Assembly: GCA_963850825.1 (NCBI GenBank)
Contig: CAWKOQ010000015.1
Coordinates: forward strand, 406 to 64,405
Length of the DNA stretch: 64,000 nucleotides
Origin: an uncultured Gammaproteobacteria bacterium
Lineage (GTDB): Bacteria > Pseudomonadota > Gammaproteobacteria > Steroidobacterales > Woeseiaceae
Direction of reading: 5' to 3'
This document shows, one piece after another, positions 4,754 to 63,397 of the stretch. Under the pieces are notes generated by a model, which was not told the origin of the DNA, ran no database searches, and saw only the letters and a program-made list of their open reading frames with translations. How positions within the stretch are numbered: position 1 is the first letter of the stretch; every line of letters begins with the position of its first letter. Both the position numbers and the translations under genes were made by a program.

Positions 4754-5767
4754 TCACAGAAGCTCTGCCGCAAGTCTTGCCAGCCTGGGGGCGAGTGCAC
4801 CGTAGTCAAACGCCTTCCTGCTCGATGCATTGCCGTCGATGGCACGCTTCAGAACGCCCTGCAGAATTGCCGCCAGCCGAAAGAAACTGAAGACGATGTA
4901 GAAGTCCCAGTTCGGAATGCCAGCGAGGCCACGTCGGCGACAATACGCGGCAACATACTCTTCTTCGGTCGGAATGCCGAGCGGAGCTCGTTCGACCTCG
5001 CCGAGCCCCGCCACGGCCTCGTTCGATCCGATCCGCAGCTGCATGCACTGGTACGCCAGATCCGCGTAGGGGTGCCCCAGCGTCGATAATTCCCAATCGA
5101 GTAACGCCAGCGCGTCGGGACTATTCGGGTGGAAGATAATGTTGTCCATCCGGTAGTCCCCGTGAATCACGCTAACCTGCCCATCGTCGTCCGGCATGTT
5201 CGCGGGAAGCCACTCGATGAGACGATCCATGGCCTCGATCGTCTCCGTTTCTGACGCACGATATTGTTTGCTCCACCGTCCGACCTGGCGCTCGAAGTAA
5301 CTTCCCGGGCGACCGTAATCAGCAAGACCGACCGCGTCGATATTAACGTCATGGAGCGACGCCAGCACGCGATTCATCTCGTCATACAAGCGGCCACGTT
5401 CGTCCCGGTTAACCTCCGGCAACGCCGGGTTCCAGAAAATTCGGCCATCTTCGAAACTCATGACGTAGAACATGCTGCCGACAATTTCCGGGTCTTCGCA
5501 CAGATGGTAAGCGCGCGCCACCGGCACGTCCGAGTCCGCGAGGGCCCGGATCACCCGATACTCGCGATCCACCGCGTGGGCCGATTTCAACAGCACGCCG
5601 GGTGGCTGCTTGCGCAACACGTATTGCCCGGAATCAGCGCTCAACCGGAATGTGGGGTTCGACTGACCGCCGGCGAACTTCGTGGCGTTCCGAAGCCCTT
5701 TGAACCCTCCGATTCGTGCCTCGAGATAGGCCCCGAGCGATTGCAGATCGAGCGTATCGACGTTCAT
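4754..5767 (-). CDS. APH/choline-kinase-fold phosphotransferase (LvaA-like / ACAD10-11 kinase-domain-like)
   Basis: 337 aa with catalytic loop HGDYRMDNIIF and a following DWE. It sits immediately downstream of an ACAD10/11-type dehydrogenase. Confidence 0.85.
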   Translation of the reverse strand: MNVDTLDLQSLGAYLEARIGGFKGLRNATKFAGGQSNPTFRLSADSGQYVLRKQPPGVLLKSAHAVDREYRVIRALADSDVPVARAYHLCEDPEIVGSMFYVMSFEDGRIFWNPALPEVNRDERGRLYDEMNRVLASLHDVNIDAVGLADYGRPGSYFERQVGRWSKQYRASETETIEAMDRLIEWLPANMPDDDGQVSVIHGDYRMDNIIFHPNSPDALALLDWELSTLGHPYADLAYQCMQLRIGSNEAVAGLGEVERAPLGIPTEEEYVAAYCRRRGLAGIPNWDFYIVFSFFRLAAILQGVLKRAIDGNASSRKAFDYGALAPRLARLAAELL

Positions 5768-5773
5768 GACCGG

Positions 5774-6994
5774 TCAACCTGCATGGCGCTTAATGATCTG
5801 CTTGCCCAGCGCCATCATATGCACCTCGTCAGGCCCGTCAGCCAGGCGACACCATCGCGCGTAGTTGAACGCGTCGGCCATGAACCAGTCGCCAGTCAGG
5901 CCGCCGGCGCCATGCATCTGAATTGCGCGGTCAATGACAGTCTGCGCCATGACCGGCACCGTGATCTTGGTTGCGGCAATCAGATCTCTTGCCTCTTTGC
6001 TGCCCTCCCGATCCATCTTGTCGGCAGTCAATAGTGTCAACAATCTTGCCTGCTCGATTTCAGCAAAGGACTTCGCAATCCCCTCTCGCACGGACTGATG
6101 TTCGCCAATCTTGCGGCCGAATGTGCTGCGCGAGTCAACTCGCTGGCAAGCCAGTTCCATTGAACGCTGTGCGCAGCCGATCAGTCGCATGCAGTGGTGA
6201 ATGCGGCCCGGCCCCAGGCGCCCCTGGGCGATTTCGAAGCCGCGGCCTTCGCCAAGCAATATATTCGCGGCAGGCACCCGCACGTTGTCGAAACTGACCT
6301 CCGCGTGCCCCAATGGTGCGTCGTCGTATCCCAGCGTGCGCAGCGGCCTGACAACCGTCACGCCCGGCGTGTCACGTGGCACCAGGATTTGCGACTGCTG
6401 CACATGCCGGTTTGGGTTGTCCGGATCTGACTTGCCCATGACGATCATGATCCTGCAATTCTCGTGCATCGCGCCTGTAATGAACCACTTTCTGCCATTC
6501 ACGAGGTAATCATCACCGTCCCTGGTAATGGAACACTCGATATTGGTCGCGTCCGACGACGCGACGGCCGGCTCCGTCATTGCGTAGGCGGATCGTATTT
6601 GCCCCTCCAGCAGCGGCGTAAGCCATCGCGCCTGTTGTTCCGGGGTTGCGTACTTCATGAAGACTTCCATGTTTCCCGTATCCGGCGCACTGCAGTTGAA
6701 CGCTTCCGGTGCCCACAGGACGCGACCCATGGTTTCGGCGAGCGGTGCGTATTCGAGGTTGCTCAGGCCTTTGCCGCCGTATTCTTTGTGGTCTTTGTCA
6801 ATGAACAGGTTCCACAAGCCCGCAGCCTTCGCCTGCGCCTTAAGCTCCACCATGACCGGTGGCGTTGCCCAGCGACTGTAGGCGTTTTCGACTTGCTCGG
6901 TGTAGAGATGCTCGACTGGGTAAACGTGCTCCTGCATGAATGCCTGGAGCGCGTCTTTGAGCGCATTTACGTCATCACTGAATCTAAATAGCAT
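5774..6994 (-). CDS. Acyl-CoA dehydrogenase, ACAD10/11-(FadE2)-like
   Basis: 406 aa. Characteristic stretches are GLWNLF, CSAPDTGNMEV, AMTEPAVASSDATNI and GPGRIHHCMR. Confidence 0.9.
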   Translation of the reverse strand: MLFRFSDDVNALKDALQAFMQEHVYPVEHLYTEQVENAYSRWATPPVMVELKAQAKAAGLWNLFIDKDHKEYGGKGLSNLEYAPLAETMGRVLWAPEAFNCSAPDTGNMEVFMKYATPEQQARWLTPLLEGQIRSAYAMTEPAVASSDATNIECSITRDGDDYLVNGRKWFITGAMHENCRIMIVMGKSDPDNPNRHVQQSQILVPRDTPGVTVVRPLRTLGYDDAPLGHAEVSFDNVRVPAANILLGEGRGFEIAQGRLGPGRIHHCMRLIGCAQRSMELACQRVDSRSTFGRKIGEHQSVREGIAKSFAEIEQARLLTLLTADKMDREGSKEARDLIAATKITVPVMAQTVIDRAIQMHGAGGLTGDWFMADAFNYARWCRLADGPDEVHMMALGKQIIKRHAG

Positions 6995-7037
6995 CTGCTG
7001 TCACCTTATGAACTCCCGAATGTTTCTCTCTTGCAAC

Positions 7038-7235
7038 TTACATGTTGGCGATGCAGTGGCCACCGTCGACCGGCAAGGCCACACCATTGATGAACTTGCC
7101 TGCGTCGCTCGCAAGCAACATGAACGGCGCGCTGATTTCTTCCATCTTCCCAGGCCTTCGCGCCGGCGTACTTTGCAGATTCTCCTTACCTGCCTGCGTC
7201 ATCGGATATTTCTCCTCGTGTCCCGGGCTCGACAA
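7038..7235 (-). pseudogene. C-terminal ~55-aa stub of a short-chain dehydrogenase
   Basis: ...PARRPGKMEEISAPFMLLASDAGKFINGVALPVDGGH is the canonical SDR C-terminus. The Rossmann and catalytic parts are absent. Confidence 0.45.
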
Positions 7236-7236
7236 A

Positions 7237-7926
7237 CTAACTGTAGGTCAGTAACCATGATCGCTTTGGGCTGGCGAAATGAGGAACCGTATTGAACGTG
7301 GCCAGCTTGATGTTCTGATGATCACAGTAGAATCGGGTAATGCTCGTATTCAGCAACTGCATGTTCAGATCGAATACTCTTCCGGGCGAAAGACCTAGCA
7401 CAGATCCGACGAACATGCTGATCGCGCCGCCGGAAGTCATCACGATAATTCGTCGCGCGCCTGAAGACATGTCTTGCAGCTCGGCGCGCGCATCCGCCAC
7501 ACGTTGCTGAAACGCATTCCAGGATTCCGGCGCGCCGTCGAGTTCATTGACAGACCAACTGGTAAGCACGCGTCGTAACAGGCGAAAGAACGCCTTGCGG
7601 TCCTGCGGAGAAGTCTTTCTAGCCAACACCAATTCATCCTCGGCATGCAAGTCACAATAGATCTCAAGCATCGCGCGAAAATCGTACTCATTGAGCCCCT
7701 CATGAGTCTTTACAGGGCCGCCGGTCTGCACAACGTTCAATATTTCGTCGAGCGTCTGTCGGTGCCGCTGCATCGCACCGGACAGCGCACCGTCAAACCT
7801 GATGTCGTGCTCGGCAAGATATGCCCCCAGAATACGGGACTGTTCGACACCCAGCTCAGACAGCTCGTCGTAGTTATCAGCAGAAAACGACGCCTGAGCA
7901 TGCCGGATAAGAAAAATTTCGCTCAA
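7237..7926 (-). CDS. Histidine phosphatase (phosphoglycerate-mutase-like) family protein
   Basis: N-terminal LIRHAQASF contains the RHG-type motif. 229 aa with a TTG start. Confidence 0.8.
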   Translation of the reverse strand: MSEIFLIRHAQASFSADNYDELSELGVEQSRILGAYLAEHDIRFDGALSGAMQRHRQTLDEILNVVQTGGPVKTHEGLNEYDFRAMLEIYCDLHAEDELVLARKTSPQDRKAFFRLLRRVLTSWSVNELDGAPESWNAFQQRVADARAELQDMSSGARRIIVMTSGGAISMFVGSVLGLSPGRVFDLNMQLLNTSITRFYCDHQNIKLATFNTVPHFASPKRSWLLTYS

Positions 7927-7969: not shown

Positions 7970-7986
7970 AATCTAATTATGCAAGT
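7970..7986 (-). promoter_or_regulatory. Operator-like 17-mer (16/17)
   Basis: + strand AATCTAATTATGCAAGT, reverse complement ACTTGCATAATTAGATT. It sits in the divergent gap between starts 7926 (-) and 8002 (+). Confidence 0.7.
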
Positions 7987-8001: not shown

Positions 8002-8337
8002 ATGGTGAAAACAGCTAACCACCCAGATTTTCCTGCGCAGCTCGCTGCGACAATCGAATGTCGCTGGGCGAACAAACTCTTCGAATATAAGCAGGACAAG
8101 AACACTTCGCATTGGGACGTGCATATCCCGAGCGTCACCTCCGACACGGCCGGCGGTGGCACCGGGCTACCATCACAGCGCGAATGCCTCGAGCTGATCG
8201 ACCGTTACGTCGCCAGAAAGATCGATAATTTCGTGGAGCTCTGCGCTATCGCCGTTCTTGCAAACGAGATTTCCTTCCGCGGCGCACTATGTGCACAGGA
8301 GTGGATCGATGCTCACGCGAGCCTGAAGTCCCGATAA
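8002..8337 (+). CDS. Hypothetical protein (no family recognised)
   Basis: 111-aa ORF whose TAA overlaps the ATG of the next gene (TAATG). No motif recognised. Confidence 0.4.
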   Translation: MVKTANHPDFPAQLAATIECRWANKLFEYKQDKNTSHWDVHIPSVTSDTAGGGTGLPSQRECLELIDRYVARKIDNFVELCAIAVLANEISFRGALCAQEWIDAHASLKSR

Positions 8338-8846
8338 TGCCCAGTCGACGGGACCACCCTGATGTCACCGCGGTTCGCGAACTCCCGTTACTGGCGAGTC
8401 AGGTCATTCCCGAAAAGTGGGAAGACCAGAACGGTCACATTAACGTGGGTTTTTACATGGCCCTATACAACGAGACCGGCTGGCCCATGTTAGACCTGAT
8501 TGGAATCGATAGACGATACTTTGCGGAACGGAAGATGGGACTCGTCGACCTGGACAACCACATTCGCTACCTGAGTGAACTGCATGTCGGTGATCGGGTT
8601 TCGGCGTACGGGCGGTTTCTCGCCTGTGACAGGAAACGAATTCAGGGCGTGTTGTTTGTAGTGAATGACGACAAGAACGTATTGGCCAGCACGATCGAAT
8701 TCCTATCGATCAATATTGACCTTCGGGAGCGGCGATCCACCAACATTCCTGCTGATATCGCCACGCGGCTAGCCGCTGTAATTAGTAAGCATCAGCGGCT
8801 CGATTGGGCGGCGGTCACCTGCATGTCACTCCCTGATTACGCATGA
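8337..8846 (+). CDS. Hotdog-fold (4HBT-type) acyl-CoA thioesterase
   Basis: WEDQNGHINVGFY...HIRYLSELHVGDRV. Clear paralog of 55925-56422. Confidence 0.75.
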   Translation: MPSRRDHPDVTAVRELPLLASQVIPEKWEDQNGHINVGFYMALYNETGWPMLDLIGIDRRYFAERKMGLVDLDNHIRYLSELHVGDRVSAYGRFLACDRKRIQGVLFVVNDDKNVLASTIEFLSINIDLRERRSTNIPADIATRLAAVISKHQRLDWAAVTCMSLPDYA

Positions 8847-8865: not shown

Positions 8866-8882
8866 ACTTGCATTATTGGACT
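8866..8882 (+). promoter_or_regulatory. Operator-like 17-mer (16/17)
   Basis: ACTTGCATTATTGGACT, 50 nt upstream of the oxygenase ATG at 8933. Confidence 0.7.
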
Positions 8883-8932: not shown

Positions 8933-10384
8933 ATGAACAGCCCCCTCATCAAACCTGACGCGCCCTTCGGCGAATCCCACGGATCGATGGTGACAGGGGT
9001 CCTTGCGCCTGTTTTCCAGGAGTACGTGCTCGACGACCTGGCGGTTGAGGGCGAGATTCCTGCTGACCTTAACGGCGTTTACCTGCGCAACGGACCCAAC
9101 CCGCGCTTCGAGCCGATGGGACAACATCACGTGTTCGACGGCGACGGTATGCTGCATTCCGCGCATTTCGATCGGGGTAAGGTTGTGTATCGCAACAAGT
9201 GGGTGCGTACCGACGCCTGGCTGGAAGAAGATGCTGCTGGCAAGTGTCTGCACGCGGGTATTTATGCAACGCGCAAGGGCCGTGAAGACAAGCGTCTCAG
9301 GGACAGCGCTAACACCGATGTGATTGGCCATGCCGGCCACGCGGTGGCCAGCTGGTACCTCGCCGGCGTGCCTTATCACCTGGATCCGATCACTCTGGAT
9401 ACCGTCGCCAAGGGAGACTATATCTTCGGTCCGGGCAACGGCTTCTCCGCGCACCCCAAGGTCGACGAAATAACAGGCGAGCTGCTGTTCTTCGATTATT
9501 ACAACGCGCACCCGCACATGAGCTATGGCGTCGTCGATGCCTCGGGCAATGCGACCCACCAGGTGCTCATCGAATTGCCGGGTTCGCGGCTACCGCACGA
9601 CATGGCGATCACCGAGAATTACTCGATCCTTCATGATCTACCGGTACTCAATGACCCTGACGCGTTCCGCGCCGGCCGTCACAAGATCCTGTTCGACTCG
9701 TCGTTGCCGGCGCGATTTGGCGTCATACTGCGCCATGGCGCAGGCGACTCGATTCGCTGGTTCGAGTTCTCGCCGTGCTTTCTCTACCATGTCATCAACG
9801 CCTGGGAAGAAGGCGATGAGGTAGTCATGGTGGCCTGCCGTTACATGCCGGTAAAAGACCTCAGAGGCGGCATCAACGAAATACGTACTGCCAAGAACAT
9901 TGGCAGCGGCATCATGGATGCCCGGCTGTGGCGCTACCGCATGAACCTGAAAACCGGCGAGGCGATCGAGGAATGCCTCGATCCTGTCCGCAACGTCGAA
10001 TTCCCGTCTTACAATGCTGCCCTGACAGGGAGAAAGACTCAGTGGGGATACTTCGTCGACCACGATCCCGCCGTCCTGCGCTGGACAGGTTTGCGTAAAT
10101 TCAATACCGACACCGGCGAGAGCGTCGGTGAGTGGAGTGACGGGCACGAAAGCTGTTGGTACAGCGAACCGTGGTTTGCGCCGGCGGACAACCCACGCAG
10201 CGAAGATCACGGCTACGTCGTTACTTTCGTCTGGAACGACAAAACCCGTGAACAGCAGCTACAGATTTTGGACGCTCAGGACATGAACAAGGGACCGGTC
10301 GCAAGAGTCCGAATACCGCACCAGATACCGTCAGGCTTTCACGCCTGCTGGATGAAGCCGAACCAGATAGCATCCTGGGGCTAG
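8933..10384 (+). CDS. Carotenoid-cleavage / lignostilbene-type dioxygenase (RPE65 family)
   Basis: 483 aa. Family stretches are HHVFDGDGMLH, SAHPKVDEITGELLFFDY, LPHDMAITENYSILHD and FLYHVINAWEE. Confidence 0.9.
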   Translation: MNSPLIKPDAPFGESHGSMVTGVLAPVFQEYVLDDLAVEGEIPADLNGVYLRNGPNPRFEPMGQHHVFDGDGMLHSAHFDRGKVVYRNKWVRTDAWLEEDAAGKCLHAGIYATRKGREDKRLRDSANTDVIGHAGHAVASWYLAGVPYHLDPITLDTVAKGDYIFGPGNGFSAHPKVDEITGELLFFDYYNAHPHMSYGVVDASGNATHQVLIELPGSRLPHDMAITENYSILHDLPVLNDPDAFRAGRHKILFDSSLPARFGVILRHGAGDSIRWFEFSPCFLYHVINAWEEGDEVVMVACRYMPVKDLRGGINEIRTAKNIGSGIMDARLWRYRMNLKTGEAIEECLDPVRNVEFPSYNAALTGRKTQWGYFVDHDPAVLRWTGLRKFNTDTGESVGEWSDGHESCWYSEPWFAPADNPRSEDHGYVVTFVWNDKTREQQLQILDAQDMNKGPVARVRIPHQIPSGFHACWMKPNQIASWG

Positions 10385-10393: not shown

Positions 10394-11698
10394 TCAGGCA
10401 GTGATGTCCTCGAACGCGAGTCGCGCCGATTTGGCCGCGCCCATGGAACCATCGTAGCCTGACGGACAAGCAGCGTCGCCGACGTTGTAGAGATTCGCAA
10501 TCGGCGTGCGGTGATCGACGTGTTTGTCGGGCACGGTTCGAAAGCCAGGCCACTTGCCTCGGTAACAGGTCTTGGTCAGGATCGTGCAACGATCTTCGAA
10601 GTCAGGAAAGATGTCGTTGAGGTCCTTTATAACCTCACCAAGCTCCGCCTTGATGTCGCCCGGGTTCAGGCTGTCCCTGGGTGCTGCACCCACGGTATAC
10701 AGGTGCTTGCCAGGTGGCGCGACTCCGTCGGCCTCCAGAGAAGGCACGTCGATCATATTGACCCGTCGGCTGCAGCCGACGCTGATGGCGGAGTAGTCCA
10801 TCAGCAATTCATCGCTGGCAAAATGAAGCCACATGATTGCGGTCGGCGTCATGTCCTTGTTGATGCGCTCGACATAGGAAGGATCCAGACAACCGTCCGA
10901 GACCAATGCCACCGTGCCGGCTGGTCCGATGTTGCTGATCACTACCGGCGCACGGACATCCATCGACTCGCGGTCCTTGCGGATGCGCACACCTTCCACT
11001 CTGCCCTCGGCCACATGAATGCTCTCGGCGGTAGCGCCGGCCCACACCTCACCTCCGGACTCCCGAACCAGATCAGCCATGCGATTCCATAGAGCGATAC
11101 TGCCGCCCTCGATAAATCCGAATTTCAGCGGCGCTATGACCTTGATGAACTTGAAATACTGGGCCGCCGGTAACTCGTAACTATTTACGGTCAACAGCGA
11201 CGAAATGGTGGCCTGGAATATGCCATGAATCTTCGGGTTCTCTGTGTACTGGTTGAGCCAGCTCCGGAAGCTGATCTCTGCAGACGGCGACTCCTCTTTC
11301 ATTGCCTTGTTGAGCGCATCTTTCATTGCCTTGTTGAGCGCATCGATAACTCGCTGTGCTTCGTCCTGGTCGCTCGCGACATCACGGATAATAGTTCGCG
11401 TGGCACCTTTAGCGAGATCATAGACCTGGCCGTCAAGCCACATTCCTACGCGCGTGCTCGGCTTTACCCCGGAGGGAATGCCAACAAGCTCGCAGACCTT
11501 TTCCATGTCGCGCCCAACGGGGACAGCCAGTCCGCCCGTGGCGCACATGTAACCATCGTGGTTGACCGTCGAAAAGCGACCGCCAAGGTAGCGGCGTTTT
11601 TCCGCCAACAGCACGCGTTGACCGGCATGGGCCAGCAGCGCCGCGGCACACATACCGCCGACGCCAGAACCTAATACGATGGCGTCAAATCGTTCCAT
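10394..11698 (-). CDS. CrtI/phytoene-desaturase-like (RetSat-like) FAD-dependent oxidoreductase
   Basis: MERFDAIVLGSGVGGMCAAALLA...LLAEKRRYLGGR dinucleotide-binding N-terminus. Start trimmed to the ATG at 11698. Paralog of 16146-17462. Confidence 0.85.
   Translation of the reverse strand: MERFDAIVLGSGVGGMCAAALLAHAGQRVLLAEKRRYLGGRFSTVNHDGYMCATGGLAVPVGRDMEKVCELVGIPSGVKPSTRVGMWLDGQVYDLAKGATRTIIRDVASDQDEAQRVIDALNKAMKDALNKAMKEESPSAEISFRSWLNQYTENPKIHGIFQATISSLLTVNSYELPAAQYFKFIKVIAPLKFGFIEGGSIALWNRMADLVRESGGEVWAGATAESIHVAEGRVEGVRIRKDRESMDVRAPVVISNIGPAGTVALVSDGCLDPSYVERINKDMTPTAIMWLHFASDELLMDYSAISVGCSRRVNMIDVPSLEADGVAPPGKHLYTVGAAPRDSLNPGDIKAELGEVIKDLNDIFPDFEDRCTILTKTCYRGKWPGFRTVPDKHVDHRTPIANLYNVGDAACPSGYDGSMGAAKSARLAFEDITA
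11296..11343. repeat. Perfect 24-bp tandem duplication, in frame inside the FAD oxidoreductase gene
   Basis: CTTTCATTGCCTTGTTGAGCGCAT x2, which encodes DALNKAMK-DALNKAMK. Confidence 0.95.
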
Positions 11699-13642: not shown

Positions 13643-13664
13643 TGTGTCCGCCGCTTTTGATTGA

Positions 13665-52640: not shown

Positions 52641-52652
52641 TCCGATTGACTC

Positions 52653-54076: not shown

Positions 54077-54082
54077 CCGCGT

Positions 54083-55921: not shown

Positions 55922-55924
55922 AGC

Positions 55925-56422
55925 ATGCCCAGAACTTTTCCCAGCGCTGAACAAGTACGTGAACTCGACGAATTGGCCGAACATACCATCCCGCCAGACT
56001 GGCAGGATCAAAACGGACACGTGAATATCCAGTATTACCAAACTCTCTACGAAATTGGCGGCTGGCCGATGTTGGGGCGAGCCGGCGTTGACCTTGAATA
56101 TTTTGAAAACCGGCGCCTGGGCATCTTTGACCTGGAACATCACATCTACTACTTAAGCGAGCTGCACGTCGGCGAGCGCGTGACAATACACGGTCGGTTT
56201 CTAGCCAGGAATCGAAAGCGTATTCACGGCATGATATTTATCGTCAACGCCGACCGGGACGAGCTTGCCTGCACGCTCGAGTTTGTGGCAACCAGCACAA
56301 GTCTCAGCACTCGCCGCACGAACGAGTTCCCAGACGACATATTGGCTGGTCTTGATGAGCTGATGAGTGCGGAGAAAAACATTGAGTGGCCTGCTCCGGT
56401 ATGCGGAGCAATGGCAATCTAG
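55925..56422 (+). CDS. Hotdog-fold (4HBT-type) acyl-CoA thioesterase
   Basis: WQDQNGHVNIQYY...HIYYLSELHVGERV. Paralog of 8337-8846. Confidence 0.8.
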   Translation: MPRTFPSAEQVRELDELAEHTIPPDWQDQNGHVNIQYYQTLYEIGGWPMLGRAGVDLEYFENRRLGIFDLEHHIYYLSELHVGERVTIHGRFLARNRKRIHGMIFIVNADRDELACTLEFVATSTSLSTRRTNEFPDDILAGLDELMSAEKNIEWPAPVCGAMAI

Positions 56423-56438: not shown

Positions 56439-58058
56439 CTAGGATGAAAGCCGGGTTTTCTTGAGAAAAATACCCGCCGCTTCCGCATCCCAGGTATCGC
56501 TGGTGATGCCGTCATCGCGAATCGCATACTTCATTAGTTTGTTCGTTGCCGTCTTTGGCAGGGCGTCCATGATTCGGACGAAACGCGGCACCATGTAGTG
56601 CGGCATTAACGGAATGAGGTACTCGATCAGCTTTTGCGGATCGATGCTTTGGTCCGGTTTCGCAACCACGGCAACCAAAATGTCCTCATCACCCAACTCG
56701 CTGGGCATGCCGACAACTGCGGCCTCGGCAACTGCGTCGTAGCCGAGAACCTCGCTCTCTACCTCGAGCGACGAGACGTTTTCACCGCGCCGCCGAACTG
56801 CGTCCTTTAGCCGGTCGACAAAAAAGAAATTCCCGTCAGTGTCCTTGCGGACCAGATCACCGGTATGAAACCACCCGTTTCGCCACGCCGCGGCTGTCGC
56901 ATCGGGGCGATTCAAATAACCGAGACTGGTCTCCCACGGTTGATCTGTACGAACGACAAGCTCACCAATTTCGTCAGGTGCACATTCGTAGTCGTGCTCA
57001 TCGACAACGCGGCATTCGCAGCCGGTGCGCGGCTTGCCGCAGCTCCCTGCAATACCGCAATCCACTTCCGTTACCAACGGCACGGACAGCTCGCTCATGT
57101 TAAAACCGGAACAGAGGCTGAAGTCGTAACGTTTTGCAACCTGAATCGCCTGCTCATTGAGCATGCAGGTCAGCATACGCAGTGGATTATCCTTTTCATT
57201 CGGCTGTTCCGGCGCCTTGGCTAAGAATGCCGCCATGGACCCGATCAGACCCGACGTCGTGGTCGCGTTACTGTCTTTTATGCGCTTCCAAAAATCTCGT
57301 GTACTAAATCCGTCATACAACGCCATCGTTGCGCAATTCGTAATCGCCGCCATTGCTGGAGAGACTCCGCCGACATGAAACATTGGGAGGTCGATCAGAA
57401 TGCAATCGTCTTCAGTCATATAGCCGTAGGAGCCCTTGCCTACCGTCACCATTTGCAGGTACGGACAAAGCACGCCCTTTGATGGCCCGGTCGTACCAGA
57501 CGTAAAAATAACCATCTGCGGGTCCCAGACGTTGACGTCTGCCGGCTCAGCCATTTCGTTATCGAATGCCAATTGCGTTCCGCTTACCTCGATGTTGTCG
57601 CCAATACGCCCATCATTGCCACCAACGGCAAGCACCGTTTTCAGTTCAGACGTGTCAATTTCGTCGAGGCGCTCGATGAGTTGCGGATGTGCGAGCATTG
57701 TCCGGCTTTGAGTTTCGCGAATCACGTGCTCGAGGATTCGTCCGCGATAGTCGAGATTTAGCGGAACGAACACCGCGCCAATGTAATTCAGCGCGAACCA
57801 TGTACGCAAAATGTCGGGCCCATTCGGCAACCATGCGAGGACAAGGTCATTACGCTTTACACCAACGCTGGAAAGATAAGCTGCTGTCTGCTTCGTCAGA
57901 GTTAGTGCTTCTTCGTAGCTCCAACTCGTGCCATCCGCAAATTTGCAGCACACTCGAGACGGGGCAAGCCGAGCATTTCGCTCCAACATAAACGGCAACA
58001 CGGCGTTTTGCTGCGTCGGTCGTGACGTGTCAAACCAATACGGATGCGCTTCAGACAT
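56439..58058 (-). CDS. Adenylate-forming acyl-CoA synthetase (CaiC-like)
   Basis: FTSGTTGPSKGV. 539 aa. Confidence 0.9.
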   Translation of the reverse strand: MSEAHPYWFDTSRPTQQNAVLPFMLERNARLAPSRVCCKFADGTSWSYEEALTLTKQTAAYLSSVGVKRNDLVLAWLPNGPDILRTWFALNYIGAVFVPLNLDYRGRILEHVIRETQSRTMLAHPQLIERLDEIDTSELKTVLAVGGNDGRIGDNIEVSGTQLAFDNEMAEPADVNVWDPQMVIFTSGTTGPSKGVLCPYLQMVTVGKGSYGYMTEDDCILIDLPMFHVGGVSPAMAAITNCATMALYDGFSTRDFWKRIKDSNATTTSGLIGSMAAFLAKAPEQPNEKDNPLRMLTCMLNEQAIQVAKRYDFSLCSGFNMSELSVPLVTEVDCGIAGSCGKPRTGCECRVVDEHDYECAPDEIGELVVRTDQPWETSLGYLNRPDATAAAWRNGWFHTGDLVRKDTDGNFFFVDRLKDAVRRRGENVSSLEVESEVLGYDAVAEAAVVGMPSELGDEDILVAVVAKPDQSIDPQKLIEYLIPLMPHYMVPRFVRIMDALPKTATNKLMKYAIRDDGITSDTWDAEAAGIFLKKTRLSS

Positions 58059-58070
58059 GGTAGTCCCTAC

Positions 58071-58835
58071 TCAACGACCGGTCGACAATGACTCGGCATG
58101 TAGAAGCGCAGCCATCTTTTTTTCCAGGTTATGCGGATCGCGCGCAAGAGATGCACGCATTCCGACCGCCATTGCGTCGGTGTCCATTTCAGAGATCCTG
58201 GCTCTAATTGCCTTCATCCCTGCTTTGGCAACAACTGACGACGGCTCTTTTTGGCCAGCGACGTGTGCCGACATTCGAGTTTCAACGGAGCCCACGATGA
58301 GGGCGCCGACGTGTGTCCCCTGGCCTGCCAGTTCGGCACGAACGTTTGTCGTTAGCGCGCGCGCCGCAAACTTTGACGGGCTATAGCCGCCCATGTTCGG
58401 CACCGCGACGATTCCGGCTGCCGACAAGATATTGATGATCGACCCGCCACCGTTGCGTTTCAGAACTGGAGCGAACGCGCGACACATGGACAAGACGCCG
58501 AAATAGTTAACATCCATCTCCGAGCGGGCTGCCGACATGTCTTCCGCGCCAATAAGCGTTCGATCACCGTAAACACCGGCATTGTTGATCACAATACTGA
58601 CTTCATCGCACTGAGCCGCGGCGGCTTGAACATCTGCCTCATTGGTCACATCAAGTTGTACAGCAACTGCGCGCTCACCCAGTTCACTGCATAAGGATTC
58701 CGCTGCTTCGAGAGATCGAGAACCGATGAAAACCCGGCGGGCACCACAGTGCAACAATTCACGGACAAAGGCCTCGCCAATTCCACGATTGCCACCCGAT
58801 ACGATTGCTACGCTGTCCTCAATATCCATGTCCAA
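58071..58835 (-). CDS. SDR-family oxidoreductase
   Basis: VSGGNRGIGEAF and YSPSK. Confidence 0.9.
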   Translation of the reverse strand: MDMDIEDSVAIVSGGNRGIGEAFVRELLHCGARRVFIGSRSLEAAESLCSELGERAVAVQLDVTNEADVQAAAAQCDEVSIVINNAGVYGDRTLIGAEDMSAARSEMDVNYFGVLSMCRAFAPVLKRNGGGSIINILSAAGIVAVPNMGGYSPSKFAARALTTNVRAELAGQGTHVGALIVGSVETRMSAHVAGQKEPSSVVAKAGMKAIRARISEMDTDAMAVGMRASLARDPHNLEKKMAALLHAESLSTGR

Positions 58836-58847
58836 GTATCCTCTGTT

Positions 58848-58864
58848 AGTCTTGTTGTGAAAGT
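58848..58864 (-). promoter_or_regulatory. Operator-like 17-mer (14/17)
   Basis: + strand AGTCTTGTTGTGAAAGT, 12 nt upstream of SDR start 58835. Confidence 0.5.
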
Positions 58865-58969
58865 AACAGCCGGCCGTGCGCCGCGCAAGATTGTTTGACG
58901 CTAGTGGCGTTCGGAGGGATCAGCTGCTGTCGGGGCCCTCCCTCGTAGCCTGATTAGGCGAACCCTGAC

Positions 58970-59263
58970 TCAGGACAAACCGTCAACGAGCGATAGCTCG
59001 ACGTCTGCATTCGCCTTGCGCAACGCCTTCAATGGTTGGTACTCGGCATCTTCATACCATGCCATCGCGCTTTCCATGTCCGGGAACTCAATGACAACCA
59101 GTGCGGCCGGAAGTGGTTCGTCACCTTCCAAAGCCACCGCTTTCCCCCCTTGCGCAAGATAGCGACCGCCGTGTTTTTCGATTAGCGATTTTGTTGCAGC
59201 GCCATACTCTTTGAGCCAACTCCATTCTGTTGCATTAACGCGACTGACAACGTACGCGGACAT
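58970..59263 (-). CDS. DUF1330 domain protein
   Basis: 97 aa. …HGGRYLAQGG…VVIEFPDMESAMAWYEDAEYQ. Confidence 0.8.
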   Translation of the reverse strand: MSAYVVSRVNATEWSWLKEYGAATKSLIEKHGGRYLAQGGKAVALEGDEPLPAALVVIEFPDMESAMAWYEDAEYQPLKALRKANADVELSLVDGLS

Positions 59264-59287
59264 ACCATTCTCCTTCTAGTCTCACTG

Positions 59288-60277
59288 TTACTGAATTTCG
59301 TCCCGGATACGCAGGATAACCTTGCCTGTCGCGCGACGTTCGGACAAGGATGCGAATGCGCCGCGAAAATCCCCGAGCACGAAAGATTCGCTGACTACGG
59401 GATGCAATAAACCCTCGCCGTACAGAGCGAAAAGTTCGTCGAAATTACTGCTGTAGGTGTCCGCATATCGCTGCGCCCAGGCACCGAAGAACACGCCACA
59501 AATACTGCAGTTCTTGAGCAGCGGCAGATTCAAAGGCACACGCGGAATTTCTCCAGCTGCAAATCCAACCACCAGAAAGCGTCCATTCCATGCGATCGCA
59601 CGTAATGCCTGCTCGGAGGCGTCACCACCGACAGGATCGAACACCACGTCGGCACCCTTGCCATCGGTGAGCAACTTGGTCCGTTCTTTCAGCGAATCGC
59701 GATCGTATCGAATACTGTCATGGGCACCAACAGACTTTGCAACTGCAAGCTTACTGTCATCGGATGCGGCAGCAATAACCCTCGCACCCAATGCTCGTGA
59801 AATATCCACCGCCGCAAGGCCGACGCCTCCTGCCGCGCCCAATACGAGAACGGTTTCTCCCCTCCGAACGTCCCCACACTGCTTCAAGGCGTAGTATGCC
59901 GTGCCATAGGCGACACAAAATCCCGCCGCGACATCAAAACTCATACTATCCGGAATACGAATTAGCTCGGTTTCCTTCTTGAGTATTTTTTCGGCGAACG
60001 CACCAACGGAGCCAACCACCGCGACCCGATCACCTGGCTTGAAACCAGTGACATCCCGCCCGACCTCGCTGACGAACCCGGCCCCTTCACCGCCCGCCAC
60101 GAACGGTAAGTCTGGCTTAATCTGATACTTGCCGGCGACTATCAAAATGTCGGGGAAATTGAGTGCCGCGGCGACGACGTCGACCAGCACCTCGTCGTCA
60201 CCGGGAGCTGGGTCGGCGACTCCCTCTACCGACAAATTGTCGAATGAACCGAGTGAAGAGCAAACCAGTGCCCTCAT
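59288..60277 (-). CDS. NADPH:quinone-oxidoreductase-type medium-chain dehydrogenase/reductase
   Basis: MDR fold with LGAAGGVGLAAV. Confidence 0.9.
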   Translation of the reverse strand: MRALVCSSLGSFDNLSVEGVADPAPGDDEVLVDVVAAALNFPDILIVAGKYQIKPDLPFVAGGEGAGFVSEVGRDVTGFKPGDRVAVVGSVGAFAEKILKKETELIRIPDSMSFDVAAGFCVAYGTAYYALKQCGDVRRGETVLVLGAAGGVGLAAVDISRALGARVIAAASDDSKLAVAKSVGAHDSIRYDRDSLKERTKLLTDGKGADVVFDPVGGDASEQALRAIAWNGRFLVVGFAAGEIPRVPLNLPLLKNCSICGVFFGAWAQRYADTYSSNFDELFALYGEGLLHPVVSESFVLGDFRGAFASLSERRATGKVILRIRDEIQ

Positions 60278-61599
60278 TGCGAAGTCTCCCCTGAGGGGCG
60301 ATCTTCTTCATGAAGCATGAAAATGGCCGTTGCTCTTGATAGCAAGAATGCGGACAACGGCAAAAAAATGACGCCTAAAACAAGCATCGAATAATGAACA
60401 AGCAATTCGTTGCGGAATACGTGATCGGTCATCGCGCCCACCAACAGCGGCCCCATACCCAAACCGATAAGGTTGATGACAAACAAGTACAACGCAATTA
60501 TCTGTCCCCGATATTGGTTCGGCGTGACCTCGTGTAATGCCGCCGGAGCAACGCCGAATGGCAACGATATGAAGAACTGCGTGACCCCAATCAAGAGCAA
60601 CACCACCATTGGATTCGTGGCAATGGGATAGAGAATGGCCGGGAGTACTGCTGCAATAGCGGCAACCATGCCAACGCGAAGAACGGAAGCCCGACCAAAC
60701 GTTTGGCGCAGCCGCTGTGTCAATACGCTGCCGCACATGACGCCGGCAGGGGCCGCCAACAGGATTACGACGCCTAACTTCAGACTTGCCTCTGCGGCGG
60801 TCATCCCATGAACCCTCGCCAATAACGTTGGCGTCCAGGCGGACAGCGAGTAGCCGTACATGACAAGAAAGGAAAAGCCGATAAAGTGACTAAGATAGAG
60901 CCTGTTCCGAGCGCGGAAATACGCTCGAAACGCCGCGAACGTCGGCGCCGCATTGCCGAGTTCACGTCGCTTCGGCTCGCGCACGAATAACAACACGAAC
61001 ACACACAGCACGAGCCCCGGTAGCCCCACAGCAATAAACACCAGGCGCCAGGGGGCGGCCTCGCCAAACATTGGAATGTGGATTGCGCCTTCTCCACTCA
61101 CGAGGCCGATGACTATGCTCCCGAATATGAGCGCGGCGCCAACGCCGAAGTAGATTCCCGACGTATAAACGCTCATCGCGCGACCACGCTGCTCCGGTCG
61201 GAAATAGTCGGAAATCATCGAATAAGCAGCTGGAGAAAGTGTCGCCTCACCCAAGCCAACAATGACCCGAGCAAAAAATAACGTCATGAAGCCACCGGCC
61301 AGTCCGGACGCGGCAGTCGCCAGCCCCCATATGAAAACGCCGATGGCAATGAGTTTGGTGCGATTCCAGGAGTCTGCAAGACGCGCCAGAAACACACCGA
61401 CAAAGGTGTAGAAAACAGCGAAAGCCAATCCATGCAGGACGCCTATGGCCGTATCCGACAGATTGAGGTCTTCTTTTATGGGCGCAACGAGGAGCGCGAT
61501 GATCATGCGATCCACGAACGAAAAAATATAGAGAACCATCAAGACGACGACGACGAACCACGCGTAGCGCGTACCCGGCCAGTTGTCAGTTTGATTCAT
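60274..61599 (-). CDS. MFS transporter
   Basis: Motif A GVFLARLADSWNRTKLI and 12 TM segments. Start trimmed to 61599. Confidence 0.85.
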   Translation of the reverse strand: MNQTDNWPGTRYAWFVVVVLMVLYIFSFVDRMIIALLVAPIKEDLNLSDTAIGVLHGLAFAVFYTFVGVFLARLADSWNRTKLIAIGVFIWGLATAASGLAGGFMTLFFARVIVGLGEATLSPAAYSMISDYFRPEQRGRAMSVYTSGIYFGVGAALIFGSIVIGLVSGEGAIHIPMFGEAAPWRLVFIAVGLPGLVLCVFVLLFVREPKRRELGNAAPTFAAFRAYFRARNRLYLSHFIGFSFLVMYGYSLSAWTPTLLARVHGMTAAEASLKLGVVILLAAPAGVMCGSVLTQRLRQTFGRASVLRVGMVAAIAAVLPAILYPIATNPMVVLLLIGVTQFFISLPFGVAPAALHEVTPNQYRGQIIALYLFVINLIGLGMGPLLVGAMTDHVFRNELLVHYSMLVLGVIFLPLSAFLLSRATAIFMLHEEDRPSGETSQ

Positions 61600-61646
61600 T
61601 CGATCGCCTGATGGGTCGTCTTCCGGCCGAAACGTCAATTTGACTC

Positions 61647-61663
61647 ACTTTCGTAAATAGACC
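61647..61663 (+). promoter_or_regulatory. Operator-like 17-mer (14/17)
   Basis: ACTTTCGTAAATAGACC preceded by TTGACTC, 47 nt upstream of MFS start 61599. Confidence 0.6.
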
Positions 61664-61750
61664 CTCAAGACTACCCTCGTACCCCGCCAGTCGCAATTTG
61701 TCCAAACCATAGAGGCTAAATACATCAACACAATCGACGCAGAGTACCTT

Positions 61751-62545
61751 CTATTTCCAGGAACGAAATAGCGGAAAAAACAGCTGCCGCATAAAGGTCG
61801 CGCGCCGATCGCCGGCAATCCCGAACTCCGATGGATAACGCCGAGTTATCCGTGCAGTACCAAACATCACATCCCATAAGAACAAAAGATTGCCGTAATT
61901 GCCTTTGTAATTGGTAACGCCGTCCGCCGGGTCCATGCCGTGATGGGCATAGTGGGTTGATGGCGTTGAAATAACGCGCTCAACCACCCATGCAACTGGC
62001 GACAAGAATCGATGACGATAGAGGAAAGCATCCCAGGGAACTGCGCAGTGAGCACCGAAAATGACGAGCGCCTTTACTAACGAATAGACGACGAAGACGG
62101 CGCCAAATCCAAGGTAGATCAAAATTGCTGAGATCCAGATCGTCGGCATGAATATGAAATACAAGAGGCTGTTTCGATAGGCAATGCGCACACTAATGTA
62201 GCGAGGCTCGTGATGTGCACGATGAAAATTGAAAAGAAAAGGAACGGAGTGCGACAGACGGTGCCACCAGTATTGCGTCATGTCGTCACCAATCAGGAGT
62301 ATGAGCACCATCGCCCAAACAGGGAGGTGGCCCCACGCCCCTTGCAAGTCGGGCACTAGCCAGCCCATTAATGCGTAGGTTACCAAGACTATTGTTGGAA
62401 CAACCAGAAGCGGAACGCTTAACGTAGTGAAAATCTCGACGACACGGTCGTCGACCGTTGCCGTCATCTTTTTGAAGCGCCCGCGAAAAAATTCCAGTGA
62501 CATCAGGCCAACAAACATCAGGGCGACGATTACTGTGCTGTTCAT
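61751..62545 (-). CDS. Fatty-acid hydroxylase / sterol desaturase family membrane di-iron enzyme
   Basis: His boxes HRLSH, HRAHH and HYAHHG. Confidence 0.85.
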   Translation of the reverse strand: MNSTVIVALMFVGLMSLEFFRGRFKKMTATVDDRVVEIFTTLSVPLLVVPTIVLVTYALMGWLVPDLQGAWGHLPVWAMVLILLIGDDMTQYWWHRLSHSVPFLFNFHRAHHEPRYISVRIAYRNSLLYFIFMPTIWISAILIYLGFGAVFVVYSLVKALVIFGAHCAVPWDAFLYRHRFLSPVAWVVERVISTPSTHYAHHGMDPADGVTNYKGNYGNLLFLWDVMFGTARITRRYPSEFGIAGDRRATFMRQLFFPLFRSWK

Positions 62546-62554
62546 CGAAGCAGG

Positions 62555-63397
62555 CTATTCGTCCGGGCCGCGGGAGGTATGTTCGTGAATAATCTTCCAG
62601 GTCCCCGCATTCGTTTTTTGCCAGACATGAGTGAATGCTCCGCGAACTGTCTCGCTCGGAAATCGGTGCTCGAACAAGCCACGCGAGATAGCGGTACCCG
62701 GCGCGATCTGACGGATGCCCACCTGGTCAGTTTCGAAGTCTCCCATCGCTTCTTCCGTCGTCCACGACGACGTAAAAAAATCGATGAGTTCCTGCTTGCT
62801 GGCGACGATTTGATTCTGAAACAGCAATGACATCTCGACGTCTCCGCTGTAAGCATCCAGGTACAGGGCCATCTCGCCAGCGTTCCAGTCCGTCGACAGT
62901 TTTTTTGTCAACTCAAGAATCTCGTTACCGACAGTGGACGCCGCTTCGGGTGGGCTTAGCGCGGCGGCCAACGATGCCTTGTCATAGTACTCACGCCACT
63001 CGTTGATCTTTCCGTTTGATATTTCCATCACACCAACGACTGGAACCCGCGAGTGTCTGCCCTTGTAGACGAAATCATCGACCCGCTCGAACATGACAAC
63101 GTCGTTAACGATCCCCTTGTTGCGGATCTGTAATTCGATGCGATCGAGATTCTGCACCAACGGCAGCAGCCTGTCCCGAATCGCCTGCTTACCAACAACC
63201 GGCTCGATCATCACACTGTGCAGGACGCCGTCGTCTGCGAACAAATCAAACGCGCGATCCCATTCCATCGTGTTCCAGGCATTGATCATGTCGTCGGCAA
63301 CTGCAAGACGTTCCGCGTCCTCCTGTGCCGTCTCTTTCGAGCAGGCAATCATTCCGCTGCAAATTACCAACAATAATATGATCGCAATTCTCATCAC
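62555..63397 (-). CDS. Lipoprotein with two NTF2-like (SnoaL/DUF4440-type) domains
   Basis: Lipobox …CSGMIACSKE. There are two ~120-aa halves, each with an NTF2-like pattern. Confidence 0.65.
   Translation of the reverse strand: MMRIAIILLLVICSGMIACSKETAQEDAERLAVADDMINAWNTMEWDRAFDLFADDGVLHSVMIEPVVGKQAIRDRLLPLVQNLDRIELQIRNKGIVNDVVMFERVDDFVYKGRHSRVPVVGVMEISNGKINEWREYYDKASLAAALSPPEAASTVGNEILELTKKLSTDWNAGEMALYLDAYSGDVEMSLLFQNQIVASKQELIDFFTSSWTTEEAMGDFETDQVGIRQIAPGTAISRGLFEHRFPSETVRGAFTHVWQKTNAGTWKIIHEHTSRGPDE

Follow-up and report, generated by a model that had tools for sequence, protein, structure and literature searches.

A candidate tandem-HxlR regulon for uptake and CoA-dependent breakdown of a lipophilic unsaturated compound in an uncultured Woeseiaceae bacterium

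The window analysed here is the whole 64,000-nucleotide stretch at positions 406 to 64,405 of contig CAWKOQ010000015.1, from an uncultured gammaproteobacterium of the family Woeseiaceae (assembly GCA_963850825.1), and the subject is a block of genes between positions 4754 and 63397 of this window, in which 49 intact genes and three remnants are arranged in 21 transcription units. All 21 units have a copy of one asymmetric 17-bp operator within 225 bp upstream of their first gene, and the only regulator encoded in the block, a protein made of two HxlR domains in tandem, lies itself behind such a copy. On balance, the block is probably a single regulon, probably repressed by the tandem HxlR protein, for the uptake and CoA-dependent breakdown of a lipophilic unsaturated compound, with a C=C-cleaving dioxygenase acting first. 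As to the substrate, we tentatively put forward, by analogy with known enzymes, methyl-branched polyene or isoprenoid material such as apocarotenoids as the likeliest class, and not stilbenes or steroids. These statements are based on a six-frame map of open reading frames (ORFs), on Pfam scans of every candidate ORF, and on comparisons of selected proteins with NCBIfam models and PDB sequences.

The shared operator and the tandem HxlR regulator

The operator, ACTTKCATAATTAGACT, is non-palindromic, with 8 of its 17 consensus positions self-complementary by our own count. With up to three mismatches allowed it is matched ten times in the window, against 0.09 matches expected from shuffles, and a weight matrix returns 13 strong sites (24.6–35.7 bits with 29 columns, or 16.8–26.9 bits with the 17-column core), beyond which nothing comparable is found in the window. 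All 13 lie in promoter regions, 1 to 221 bp from the start of the first facing gene, and eight of them serve divergent gene pairs. An earlier note on this DNA, made from the letters and their ORFs, had stated that the enzymes and transporters of the block all lie behind the same operator, and the strong sites, with every one of the units standing behind a copy, bear this out. The motif was missed by an exact count of 10-mers over the intergenic regions, and was found by reading the intergenic sequence and then by the weight matrix. Since most sites lie 8 to 70 bp from the start codon, a repressor fits better than an activator, as far as position goes. The 13 copies are as follows (gene names as in the lists below; L numbers designate related loci):

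7970–7986, minus: copy 1, ACTTGCATAATTAGATT; between HisPhos and the HMG-CoA reductase (HMGR) remnant/4HBT_1
8866–8882, plus: copy 2; 50 bp before CCO1; same site in L085 and L087
14290–14306, plus: copy 3; divergent DSBA/AMP1 promoter region
18950–18966, minus: copy 4; 69 bp before the truncated DUF1295_a-hxlR2 operon; identical site upstream of DUF1295 in L012
24594–24610, plus: copy 5; between the aldehyde dehydrogenase (ALDH) operon and the abH2-hemerythrin-AGPAT-GPAT operon; conserved in L010, L012, L016 and L020
32340–32356, minus: copy 6; between the CCO remnant/abH3/WS-DGAT operon and AbfD
38940–38956, plus: copy 7; between the SDR2-AMP3-Thl3-NMO operon and NTF2_e
42070–42086, minus: copy 8; between the Amidohydro_3-SGL operon and MFS1
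47580–47596, plus: copy 9; between the operon of the TonB-dependent receptor (TBDR) and CCO2 and the DUF1295_b-Mo-oxidoreductase operon
52653–52669, plus: copy 10; between the ACAD2-NTF2-NTF2 operon and the DUF1295_c-NTF2_c-AMP4-4HBT_2 operon
58848–58864, minus: copy 11; 12 bp before SDR3-AMP5
61647–61663, plus: copy 12; 8 bp before MFS2, in reverse orientation to MFS2
63443–63459, plus: copy 13; 45 bp before NTF2_d-FA_hydroxylase, in reverse orientation

A sigma-70 promoter scan showed no enrichment (9 matches found versus 7.8 expected), and the only sigma-70-like match adjoining an operator, GTGACT-18-TATGAT, is overlapped by copy 1. The sequence at 2316–2332, upstream of a cytochrome c peroxidase gene, scores 14 bits though it belonged to the training set of the matrix, and is not counted as an operator.

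The regulator behind the site at 18950 is encoded at:

17469–18416, minus: tandem HxlR regulator, 315 amino acids (aa), matched twice by Pfam HxlR (PF01638)

Both halves of the protein match the PA1607, YodB and HxlR structures in the PDB sequence search, and by Foldseek each half has the HxlR winged-helix fold (TM-score to the target up to 0.84). The two halves are placed in one confident arrangement by an AF2 model (pLDDT 89, pTM 0.88), and no solved chain covers both of them, the known structures matching one half at a time. Each winged-helix domain is followed by a motif, H-x2-C-x9-C-x2-C, that is invariant in 60 homologues (H121/C124/C134/C137 and H285/C288/C298/C301 here). The invariant cysteines of the protein lie in these two HCCC motifs, not at the N-terminus; at position 17, which corresponds to the sensing Cys of YodB, HypR and HxlR, the regulator has Ser, and Cys is present in 64% of 44 orthologues. 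The protein has at least 803 homologues, all without a functional name, and neither a solved structure nor a literature description of the tandem-HxlR architecture was found.

From position and co-occurrence, the regulon is most likely repressed by this protein. The usual HxlR/DUF24 arrangement is a homodimer of 100–145 aa subunits on a two-fold symmetric site, from which the tandem protein departs both by its single chain and by its asymmetric operator. It would act as a single-chain pseudo-dimer, whose two unlike winged-helix halves read two unlike operator halves, and two non-identical heads on one chain would explain why the operator is not palindromic. Through the site at 18950 it would also control its own operon by autoregulation. 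Characterised HxlR/DUF24 proteins (YodB, HypR, HxlR) sense electrophiles or aldehydes, and the simplest guess is that the inducer would be the substrate or a reactive aldehyde derived from it.

Oxygenases and associated enzymes

The dioxygenases of the carotenoid-cleavage oxygenase (CCO) family were recognised with the RPE65 model (PF03055, gathering cut-off 27 bits):

8933–10384, plus: CCO1, carotenoid-cleavage-family dioxygenase (RPE65 E 2e-122, 410 bits)
43514–44986, minus: CCO2, carotenoid-cleavage-family dioxygenase (RPE65 E 3e-119, 400 bits), co-transcribed with the TBDR gene
32060–32281, minus: CCO remnant, an ORF of 74 codons, the first 66 of which are 67% identical to the N-terminus of CCO2

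CCO1 and CCO2, which share 41% identity, have no signal peptide and are predicted to be cytoplasmic. The columns of the LsdA iron ligands His167, His218, His282 and His472 are occupied by His in both proteins and in five orthologues. For both, the best PDB match is the plant carotenoid 9,10-dioxygenase CCD1 (9luz, 236 and 212 bits), above NOV1, LsdA, VP14 and ACO, and the top NCBIfam model is that of apocarotenoid 13,14-dioxygenase (NF052295, NACOX1 type), with the lignostilbene model just behind. In LsdA, Lys134 and Tyr101 form a pair that binds and activates the 4-hydroxyl of stilbenes. At the position of Lys134, CCO1, CCO2 and every orthologue checked have Tyr; at that of Tyr101, the CCO2 clade has Met or Ala, and CCO1 has Tyr in a gappy region of the alignment. 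The lignostilbene models give 236 and 214 bits (NF053778, cut-off 800) and 203 and 181 bits (NF053780, cut-off 650). Given the replacement of Lys134, the scores under these cut-offs and CCD1 as the best PDB match, the two proteins are not lignostilbene dioxygenases; it was a firm place in the lignostilbene clade, with action on stilbenes only, that the earlier note had named as speaking against its reading. By sequence comparison, they fall in no characterised subgroup. The remnant is a separate ORF, in another frame than the adjoining alpha/beta hydrolase gene and not fused to it, and its position is occupied by an intact CCO gene, beside the lipid-synthesis operon and the operator, in L010, L016 and L020, which derive from uncultured gammaproteobacterial metagenome-assembled genomes (MAGs).

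The remaining genes of the block include acyl-CoA dehydrogenases (ACAD), short-chain dehydrogenases/reductases (SDR), major facilitator superfamily (MFS) transporters and proteins of the NTF2 fold, some of them similar to limonene-epoxide hydrolase (LEH):

4754–7926, minus: operon of HisPhos, ACAD11-type ACAD (5774–6994) and ACAD11-type kinase (4754–5767); split LvaA/LvaC-like module
8002–8846, plus: HMGR remnant (8002–8337) and 4HBT_1 thioesterase
10394–14264, minus: operon of DSBA-like protein, ThlS1, alpha/beta hydrolase and FADox1 (FAD amine-oxidase-like)
14358–17462, plus: AMP1 (CoA ligase) and FADox2 (FAD amine-oxidase-like), by Pfam and NCBIfam
18413–18880, minus: DUF1295_a, truncated, with the C-terminal 155 aa left and about 115 N-terminal residues gone
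19082–22678, minus: ThlS2 (SCP2-like thiolase), AMP2 (CoA ligase) and SDR1, one operon, downstream of the ALDH gene
22684–24372, minus: PaaN_2 aldehyde dehydrogenase (TIGR02288, 637 bits versus cut-off 579)
24672–32072, both strands: abH2, hemerythrin, HAD-AGPAT and GPAT (plus), WS/DGAT and abH3 (minus); neutral-lipid synthesis genes
32442–33998, plus: AbfD-type 4-hydroxybutyryl-CoA dehydratase/vinylacetyl-CoA isomerase (6vjr, E 2.7e-246, 821 bits over 498 residues)
34067–38901, minus: operon of SDR2, AMP3, Thl3 (classical thiolase) and NMO (FMN enzyme, FabK/nitronate monooxygenase family)
38992–39375, plus: NTF2_e, NTF2 protein
39393–40313, minus: SGL lactonase (Pfam)
40310–42037, minus: Amidohydro_3 lipoprotein, with a lipoprotein-type signal peptide
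42129–43508, plus: MFS1, related to anion:cation symporters
45100–47424, minus: TonB-dependent outer-membrane receptor (Pfam)
47731–50699, plus: DUF1295_b and cytoplasmic molybdopterin oxidoreductase (Pfam, NCBIfam)
50685–52676, minus: ACAD2, NTF2_b (LEH/SnoaL) and NTF2_a (SnoaL_2) (Pfam, PDB)
52671–56422, plus: DUF1295_c, NTF2_c (SnoaL_4), AMP4 and 4HBT_2 thioesterase (Pfam, NCBIfam)
56439–63397, minus: AMP5, SDR3, DUF1330, Zn-ADH/quinone-oxidoreductase-like protein, MFS2, FA_hydroxylase and NTF2_d (Pfam)
58970–59263, minus: DUF1330 gene, in the regulon; the Phenylobacterium counterpart lies beside the oxygenase gene, at 6614–6904 of L166
60274–61638, minus: MFS2, paralogue of MFS1 (41% identical)
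62555–63397, minus: NTF2_d lipoprotein, with two domains (LEH/SnoaL and DUF4440) and a lipoprotein-type signal peptide

In total there are five AMP-forming (CoA) ligases, three thiolases (two SCP2-type), two ACADs, three SDRs, two 4HBT thioesterases, three alpha/beta hydrolases, one SGL lactonase, one Amidohydro_3 protein, two MFS transporters and single copies of FA_hydroxylase, molybdenum oxidoreductase and TonB-dependent receptor. The enzyme families listed in the earlier note are thus essentially recovered, in several cases with a refinement. Its five NTF2 proteins are present (at 38992, 50685, 51071, about 53555 and 62555), but three, not two, pass the LEH cut-off; of the oxygenases it gave as two intact and one decayed, the decayed copy is reduced to a 66-codon remnant; the three DUF1295 genes exist, one of them (18413–18880) truncated; and the two flavoproteins described as CrtI/RetSat-like are CrtI-like only at the level of the amine-oxidase superfamily. 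The paralogy it stressed is real, but the pairs are 26–65% identical, and the duplications are therefore old. Its failure to recognise a crotonase or a MaoC hydratase is confirmed by the Pfam scans, which give no match to either in any ORF of the block. Finally, what it called a catabolic supercluster is supported as a co-regulated block with CCO-family oxygenases and CoA-dependent degradation at its centre, though not as a purely catabolic one, since the GPAT/HAD-AGPAT/WS-DGAT genes for wax-ester and triacylglycerol (WS/TAG) synthesis carry the same operator. No equivalog-level NCBIfam name was obtained for the ligases, SDRs, transporters, NMO, DUF1295 or FAD enzymes, and Rfam, tRNA and tandem-repeat scans gave nothing relevant.

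The relation of the MFS transporters to anion symporters suggests that a carboxylated substrate crosses the inner membrane, and the lipoprotein signals of the Amidohydro_3 protein and of NTF2_d indicate that some of the substrate processing may be extracytoplasmic. The minus-strand ORF at 38989–39606 has no Pfam match and was rejected as a gene, the real gene there being the plus-strand NTF2 gene at 38992–39375. The PaaN-type aldehyde dehydrogenase is not accompanied by PaaABCDE oxygenase, PaaG, PaaK or other paa genes in the Pfam hits of the 52 ORFs. ThlS1 is a SCP2-type thiolase with Cys135 (CASG), HDCF354 and GHP403, whose best PDB matches are 4bi9 and 3zbg, and with its catalytic Cys, HDCF and GHP motifs present a role as Ltp2-like retro-aldolase was rejected; ThlS2 lacks the HDCF motif. 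SCP2/SCPx thiolases act on 2-methyl-branched 3-oxoacyl-CoA. The two flavoproteins of the Amino_oxidase family (10394–11701, minus, and 16146–17462, plus) reach 56 bits with the CrtI-family model, for which the cut-off is 238. A perfect in-frame tandem duplication (24 bp × 2.1, 11295–11344) lies inside a FAD oxidoreductase gene, and another perfect one (19 bp × 2.1, 18877–18916) at the 5′ edge of the truncated DUF1295 gene.

Two modules of the block, neither of them recognised in the earlier note, are related to the metabolism of 4-hydroxyacyl-CoA. The protein at 32442–33998 is matched by the Pfam HpaB family, and its identification as a phenol hydroxylase was rejected in favour of an AbfD-type enzyme on the basis of PDB scores and Fe-S motifs. 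The HpaB-1 model gives 164 against a cut-off of 480, and true HpaB proteins give at most 132 bits (1e-37), compared with 577 bits (E 4e-172) for 1u8v and the higher score already listed for 6vjr, which is presumably the archaeal Nitrosopumilus enzyme of the 3-hydroxypropionate/4-hydroxybutyrate cycle. Its motifs TCFQRC and YHRRSYVC align with SCFQRC and YHRQSYGGC of 1u8v, so that the [4Fe-4S] ligand motifs, CxxxC plus His and Cys, are kept. In the leftmost operon, the APH-type kinase and the adjoining ACAD match ACAD11 at E 4e-81 and 7e-121, against 3e-37 at best for other ACADs, and appear from sequence to be the two halves of an ACAD11-type enzyme with a putative role on 4-hydroxyacyl-CoA. 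In mammalian ACAD11 and in the levulinate operon of Pseudomonas, the kinase phosphorylates 4-hydroxyacyl-CoA and elimination of the phosphate gives enoyl-CoA (PMC12440821, PMC11342911), and for ACAD10 alkylglycerol has been reported as an alternative kinase substrate (PMC13596139). Together, AbfD, the kinase with its ACAD, and the lactonase would open two ways for 4-hydroxy acids or lactones to enter beta-oxidation, and would partly offset the missing hydratase.

The HMGR remnant consists of 111 codons, with about 16 N-terminal residues and the C-terminal part left on either side of an internal deletion, and an intact HMGR of 374 aa is found at the same position, beside CCO1, in L085 and L087 (where CCO1 is 96% and 77% identical). 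Decay marks several places near operators, namely the deletion in HMGR, the 5′ truncation of DUF1295, the CCO remnant and an APH-like remnant past the right edge, and suggests an ongoing turnover of redundant paralogues. The last of these, an APH/ACAD11-kinase-like remnant with stop codons, is at 63540–63720 on the minus strand, just past the right edge of the block; as the window stops at 64000, the regulon may extend further. The left flank contains a transposase (rve integrase core) at 31–924 (plus) that is broken into two ORFs, and is thus probably an inactivated insertion element, and a di-haem cytochrome c peroxidase (CCP_MauG) with a signal peptide at 951–2306 (minus). Between the peroxidase and the regulon, a stretch of lower GC content (0.52) encodes a HigA-like XRE antitoxin (2966–3256, minus) and a DUF423 membrane protein (3959–4294, plus) and has no relation to the regulon.

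Conservation of the core in genomes and metagenomes

In a genome scan with CCO2, 591 related stretches were found, the best 80 of them 65–73% identical, and the window proteins were mapped onto these loci. The relatives belong to Woeseiaceae/Lentisalinibacter, uncultured Gammaproteobacteria, Phenylobacterium, Brevundimonas, Kordiimonas and many Sphingomonadales, the closest genome match (73%) being an uncultured Woeseiaceae MAG; one Logan contig is identical to the window over 6.6 kb. An association of the oxygenase with NMO, CoA ligase, thiolases, PaaN-type ALDH, TonB receptor, tandem HxlR and operator recurs in Sphingomonadales, Caulobacterales, Woeseiaceae and many metagenome contigs. Co-localisation, whose lack of conservation the earlier note would have taken as evidence against its reading, is thus conserved both in relatives and across classes, in genome and metagenome loci alike.

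The most compact form is that of the Sphingomonadales, in which the strand opposite the tandem HxlR and TBDR genes carries NMO-CCO-CoA ligase-SCP2 thiolase-thiolase-PaaN ALDH, with the operator, ACTTGCATAAnnnnACT, in front of NMO. One Sphingomonas locus, seen through precomputed Pfam annotation, has in addition three SnoaL/LEH proteins, an SDR, a lipocalin and a TBDR, and no hydratase. In Phenylobacterium, Brevundimonas and Kordiimonas, genes for DUF1295, NTF2, SDR3, AMP5 and MFS lie beside the oxygenase gene; in Phenylobacterium its surroundings comprise DUF1295, two LEH-like NTF2 proteins, NMO, DUF1330, two ligases, MFS and TBDR. DUF1330, a family of unknown function, therefore travels with the cluster.

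The order of the window is repeated from 4HBT_2 to ThlS2 on a metagenome contig of 75 kb (L084, CCO 74% identical), where SDR2/AMP3/Thl3/NMO are also in near-identical order, and the order of the lipid-synthesis genes, with the operator, recurs in L010, L012, L016 and L020. Among 29 CCO1 metagenome loci of at least 12 kb, ThlS1 is found in 21, ligases in 18, Thl3 in 17 and NMO in 12; the CCO1 metagenome loci contain 69 operator matches, versus 5 in shuffled copies, and in several of them the ACAD11-type pair adjoins the oxygenase gene. Since the core is widespread and its clustering is not universal, the window represents an unusually aggregated version of the regulon. Cultured carriers of the core include Sphingopyxis terrae NBRC 15098, Phenylobacterium haematophilum DSM 21793, Parasphingopyxis lamellibrachiae DSM 26725 and Lentisalinibacter species.

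Proposed pathway, alternatives and relation to known systems

In the pathway we propose, a lipophilic, probably carboxylated, unsaturated compound would be imported by the TonB-dependent receptor and the anion-type MFS transporters, and cytoplasmic CCO1 and CCO2 would cleave a C=C bond to give an aldehyde or ketone. The PaaN-type aldehyde dehydrogenase would then form the acid and the acyl-CoA ligases would activate it, while double bonds, epoxides and keto groups would be remodelled by NMO, DUF1295, the Zn-ADH-like and FAD amine-oxidase-like proteins, ACAD2 and the NTF2 proteins, and the chain would be shortened by the SCP2-type and classical thiolases. Beside this core, further operator-bearing operons have been assembled in this lineage, for lactones and 4-hydroxy acids (the lactonase and esterases, AbfD, the ACAD11-type kinase and ACAD) and for neutral lipids, the WS/TAG synthesis operon, which could store products. 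By analogy, the similarity of the oxygenases to CCD1, the SCP2-type thiolases, HMGR and the DUF1295, FAD saturase-type and LEH-type enzymes point to polyene or isoprenoid substrates; to methyl-branched, isoprenoid-type ones, some support would be added by the SCP2-type thiolases and by the HMGR that is intact in relatives.

Several observations weigh against this interpretation. Enoyl-CoA hydratase and an obvious 3-hydroxyacyl-CoA dehydrogenase are absent, by domain scans, from the block and from its compact versions. Both oxygenases score far under all NCBIfam equivalog cut-offs (241 and 227 bits versus 675 with NF052295), and at the second-shell column of Glu135 the CCO2 clade has Gln and CCO1 has Leu, with a Glu three residues later, so that a shift of the alignment is possible; the active site may differ from that of known members. 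The Lentisalinibacter orthologue lies beside TBDR only, though the operator is present, one Erythrobacter orthologue is in a Rieske/SDR/GST gene context, and three operator sites are reversed relative to the gene that they precede. Repression, as opposed to activation, and the pairing of regulator and operator are deduced from position and co-occurrence. Lastly, the biosynthetic lipid operon fits a general lipid regulon as well as a dedicated pathway.

Such a general regulon for the use and storage of lipids and oxidised lipids is the chief rival reading, and is in our opinion unlikely. Its regulator would respond to acyl-CoA, to fatty acids or to electrophiles derived from lipids, and it would serve mainly to use hydroxy, oxo or epoxy fatty acids, lactones and membrane debris, with the oxygenases in an accessory role on conjugated lipids encountered in passing. 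In its favour are the ACAD11-type kinase with its ACAD and AbfD, both for 4-hydroxyacyl-CoA, the lactonase, esterases, thioesterases and FA_hydroxylase, the full GPAT/AGPAT/WS-DGAT set with the same operator, and the electrophile- or aldehyde-sensing YodB, HypR and HxlR as structural neighbours of the regulator. However, what travels with the regulator and operator is the set of oxygenase, NMO, CoA ligase, thiolases and PaaN ALDH, and not the hydroxy-acid and storage modules; moreover the block has no FadBA-type core, and the N-terminal redox Cys of YodB is Ser in the regulator. Distinctly less probable still is a route in which the oxygenase would release aromatic aldehydes from alkenes of lignin or plant phenylpropanoid origin, such as stilbenes, isoeugenol, vinylphenols and aryl polyenes. 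The oxygenases share a superfamily with LsdA and NOV1, the lignostilbene model scores nearly equal the apocarotenoid one, bacterial CCOs cleaving isoeugenol and 4-vinylguaiacol exist (PMC6700365), and sphingomonads carry the cluster, but the Lys134 column is Tyr in both proteins and in the orthologues checked, that of Tyr101 is Met in the CCO2 clade, and 214–236 bits are reached where 800 are required. Ring-cleavage dioxygenase, demethylase and vanillin-type genes were not found in Pfam scans of the block, L084 and the compact loci, the apparent HpaB protein is a CoA-ester dehydratase, and the closest relatives are Woeseiaceae of marine sediment.

Degradation of steroids or hopanoids, with DUF1295 as 5-alpha-reductase-like enzyme, NTF2 as ketosteroid isomerase, the SCP2 thiolases acting on the side chain and NMO as an IpdC-like reductase, has little to commend it. 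DUF1295 does match Steroid_dh, and the presence of SCP2-type thiolases, NTF2 proteins and NMO gives the block a likeness to the CoA-ester degradation of steroid rings. Yet no signature of KstD, KshAB (Rieske), HsaABCD, IpdAB or cholesterol oxidase/3-beta-HSD is found by Pfam and NCBIfam among the 52 ORFs, and the known steroid pathways give a carotenoid-cleavage oxygenase no role. Equally hard to credit is a non-degradative block, making apocarotenoid-type signals or retinal-like products or remodelling the pigments or quinones of the cell itself: plant CCD1-like oxygenases do make signalling and aroma compounds, and sphingomonads and Erythrobacter do make carotenoids, but with its TonB receptor and importers, its five CoA ligases and three thiolases and its ACADs the block looks equipped to take up and mineralise a compound, and no carotenoid or rhodopsin genes are found by Pfam in the window or in the compact versions.

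To return to the CoA-dependent breakdown of polyene or isoprenoid compounds, carotenoids are among the most abundant lipids reaching soils and sediments, and we know of no bacterial route from them, or from their cleavage products, into central metabolism; full-text searches likewise yielded no paper on this combination of genes or on a bacterial pathway of carotenoid mineralisation. A bolder proposal, which as a whole we regard as doubtful, is that the cluster is the first genetic blueprint for the full bacterial mineralisation of carotenoid-derived polyenes, present in hundreds of Proteobacteria and switched by a new class of HxlR proteins sensing the aldehyde products. If this were true, the compounds would be apocarotenals, apocarotenoic acids and lactone or ionone-type fragments, consumed by hosts from soil, freshwater and marine sediment, and the new class of regulator would be a single-chain pseudo-dimeric HxlR with two zinc-ribbon-like HCCC modules and an asymmetric operator. 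Whatever the substrate, the analysis gives a shared context to the DUF1295, DUF1330, SnoaL/LEH-like NTF2 and NMO families, places bacterial ACAD11-type and AbfD-type 4-hydroxyacyl-CoA routes inside a larger lipid regulon, and brings out a tandem HxlR architecture without a solved or described counterpart. With a conserved core and a travelling operator and regulator defined, the cultured carriers make the question of the substrate directly testable.

Among known systems, the stilbene catabolism of sphingomonads with LsdA or NOV1 resembles the proposed one in that a 4-His iron dioxygenase of the CCO superfamily opens a C=C bond first and in that TonB-dependent uptake is common to both; here, in contrast, Lys134 (and in the CCO2 clade Tyr101) is lacking, the scores are far under the lignostilbene equivalog cut-offs, and downstream CoA ligases, thiolases and reductases take the place of aromatic ring-cleavage enzymes. 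With plant CCD1, NACOX1, ACO and MtCCO the present oxygenases share the best match (9luz), the top-scoring apocarotenoid model and a cytosolic location without signal peptide, whereas their scores are about one third of the equivalog cut-off, the equivalent of Glu135 may differ, and those enzymes are not known to form part of a regulon for CoA-dependent degradation. An adjoining APH-type kinase and ACAD11-type ACAD, together with SDRs and CoA ligases, are found both here and in lvaABCDE of Pseudomonas putida and mammalian ACAD10/ACAD11, a set of enzymes that passes 4-oxo and 4-hydroxy acids into beta-oxidation (PMC12440821); unlike lvaABCDE, the present module is one of 21 operons in a larger regulon, begins with a histidine-phosphatase gene and has no recognised LvaB. 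With peroxisomal SCPx/pristanic-acid beta-oxidation and the bacterial Atu/Liu catabolism of acyclic terpenes the block has in common SCP2-type thiolases and a HMG-CoA-related enzyme (HMGR, intact in relatives), which suggest methyl-branched acyl-CoA intermediates, and it differs from them in having no geranyl-CoA carboxylase, HMG-CoA lyase, methylacyl-CoA racemase or hydratase. As for the regulator, the winged-helix fold of each half is that of HxlR, YodB, HypR and QsrR, and the operators lie over promoters, as do those of the YodB and QsrR repressors; compared with YodB-type sensors the N-terminal sensing Cys is not conserved, and compared with HxlR/DUF24 proteins the regulator is a single chain with two domains, each with its invariant H-C-C-C motif, and with an asymmetric operator.

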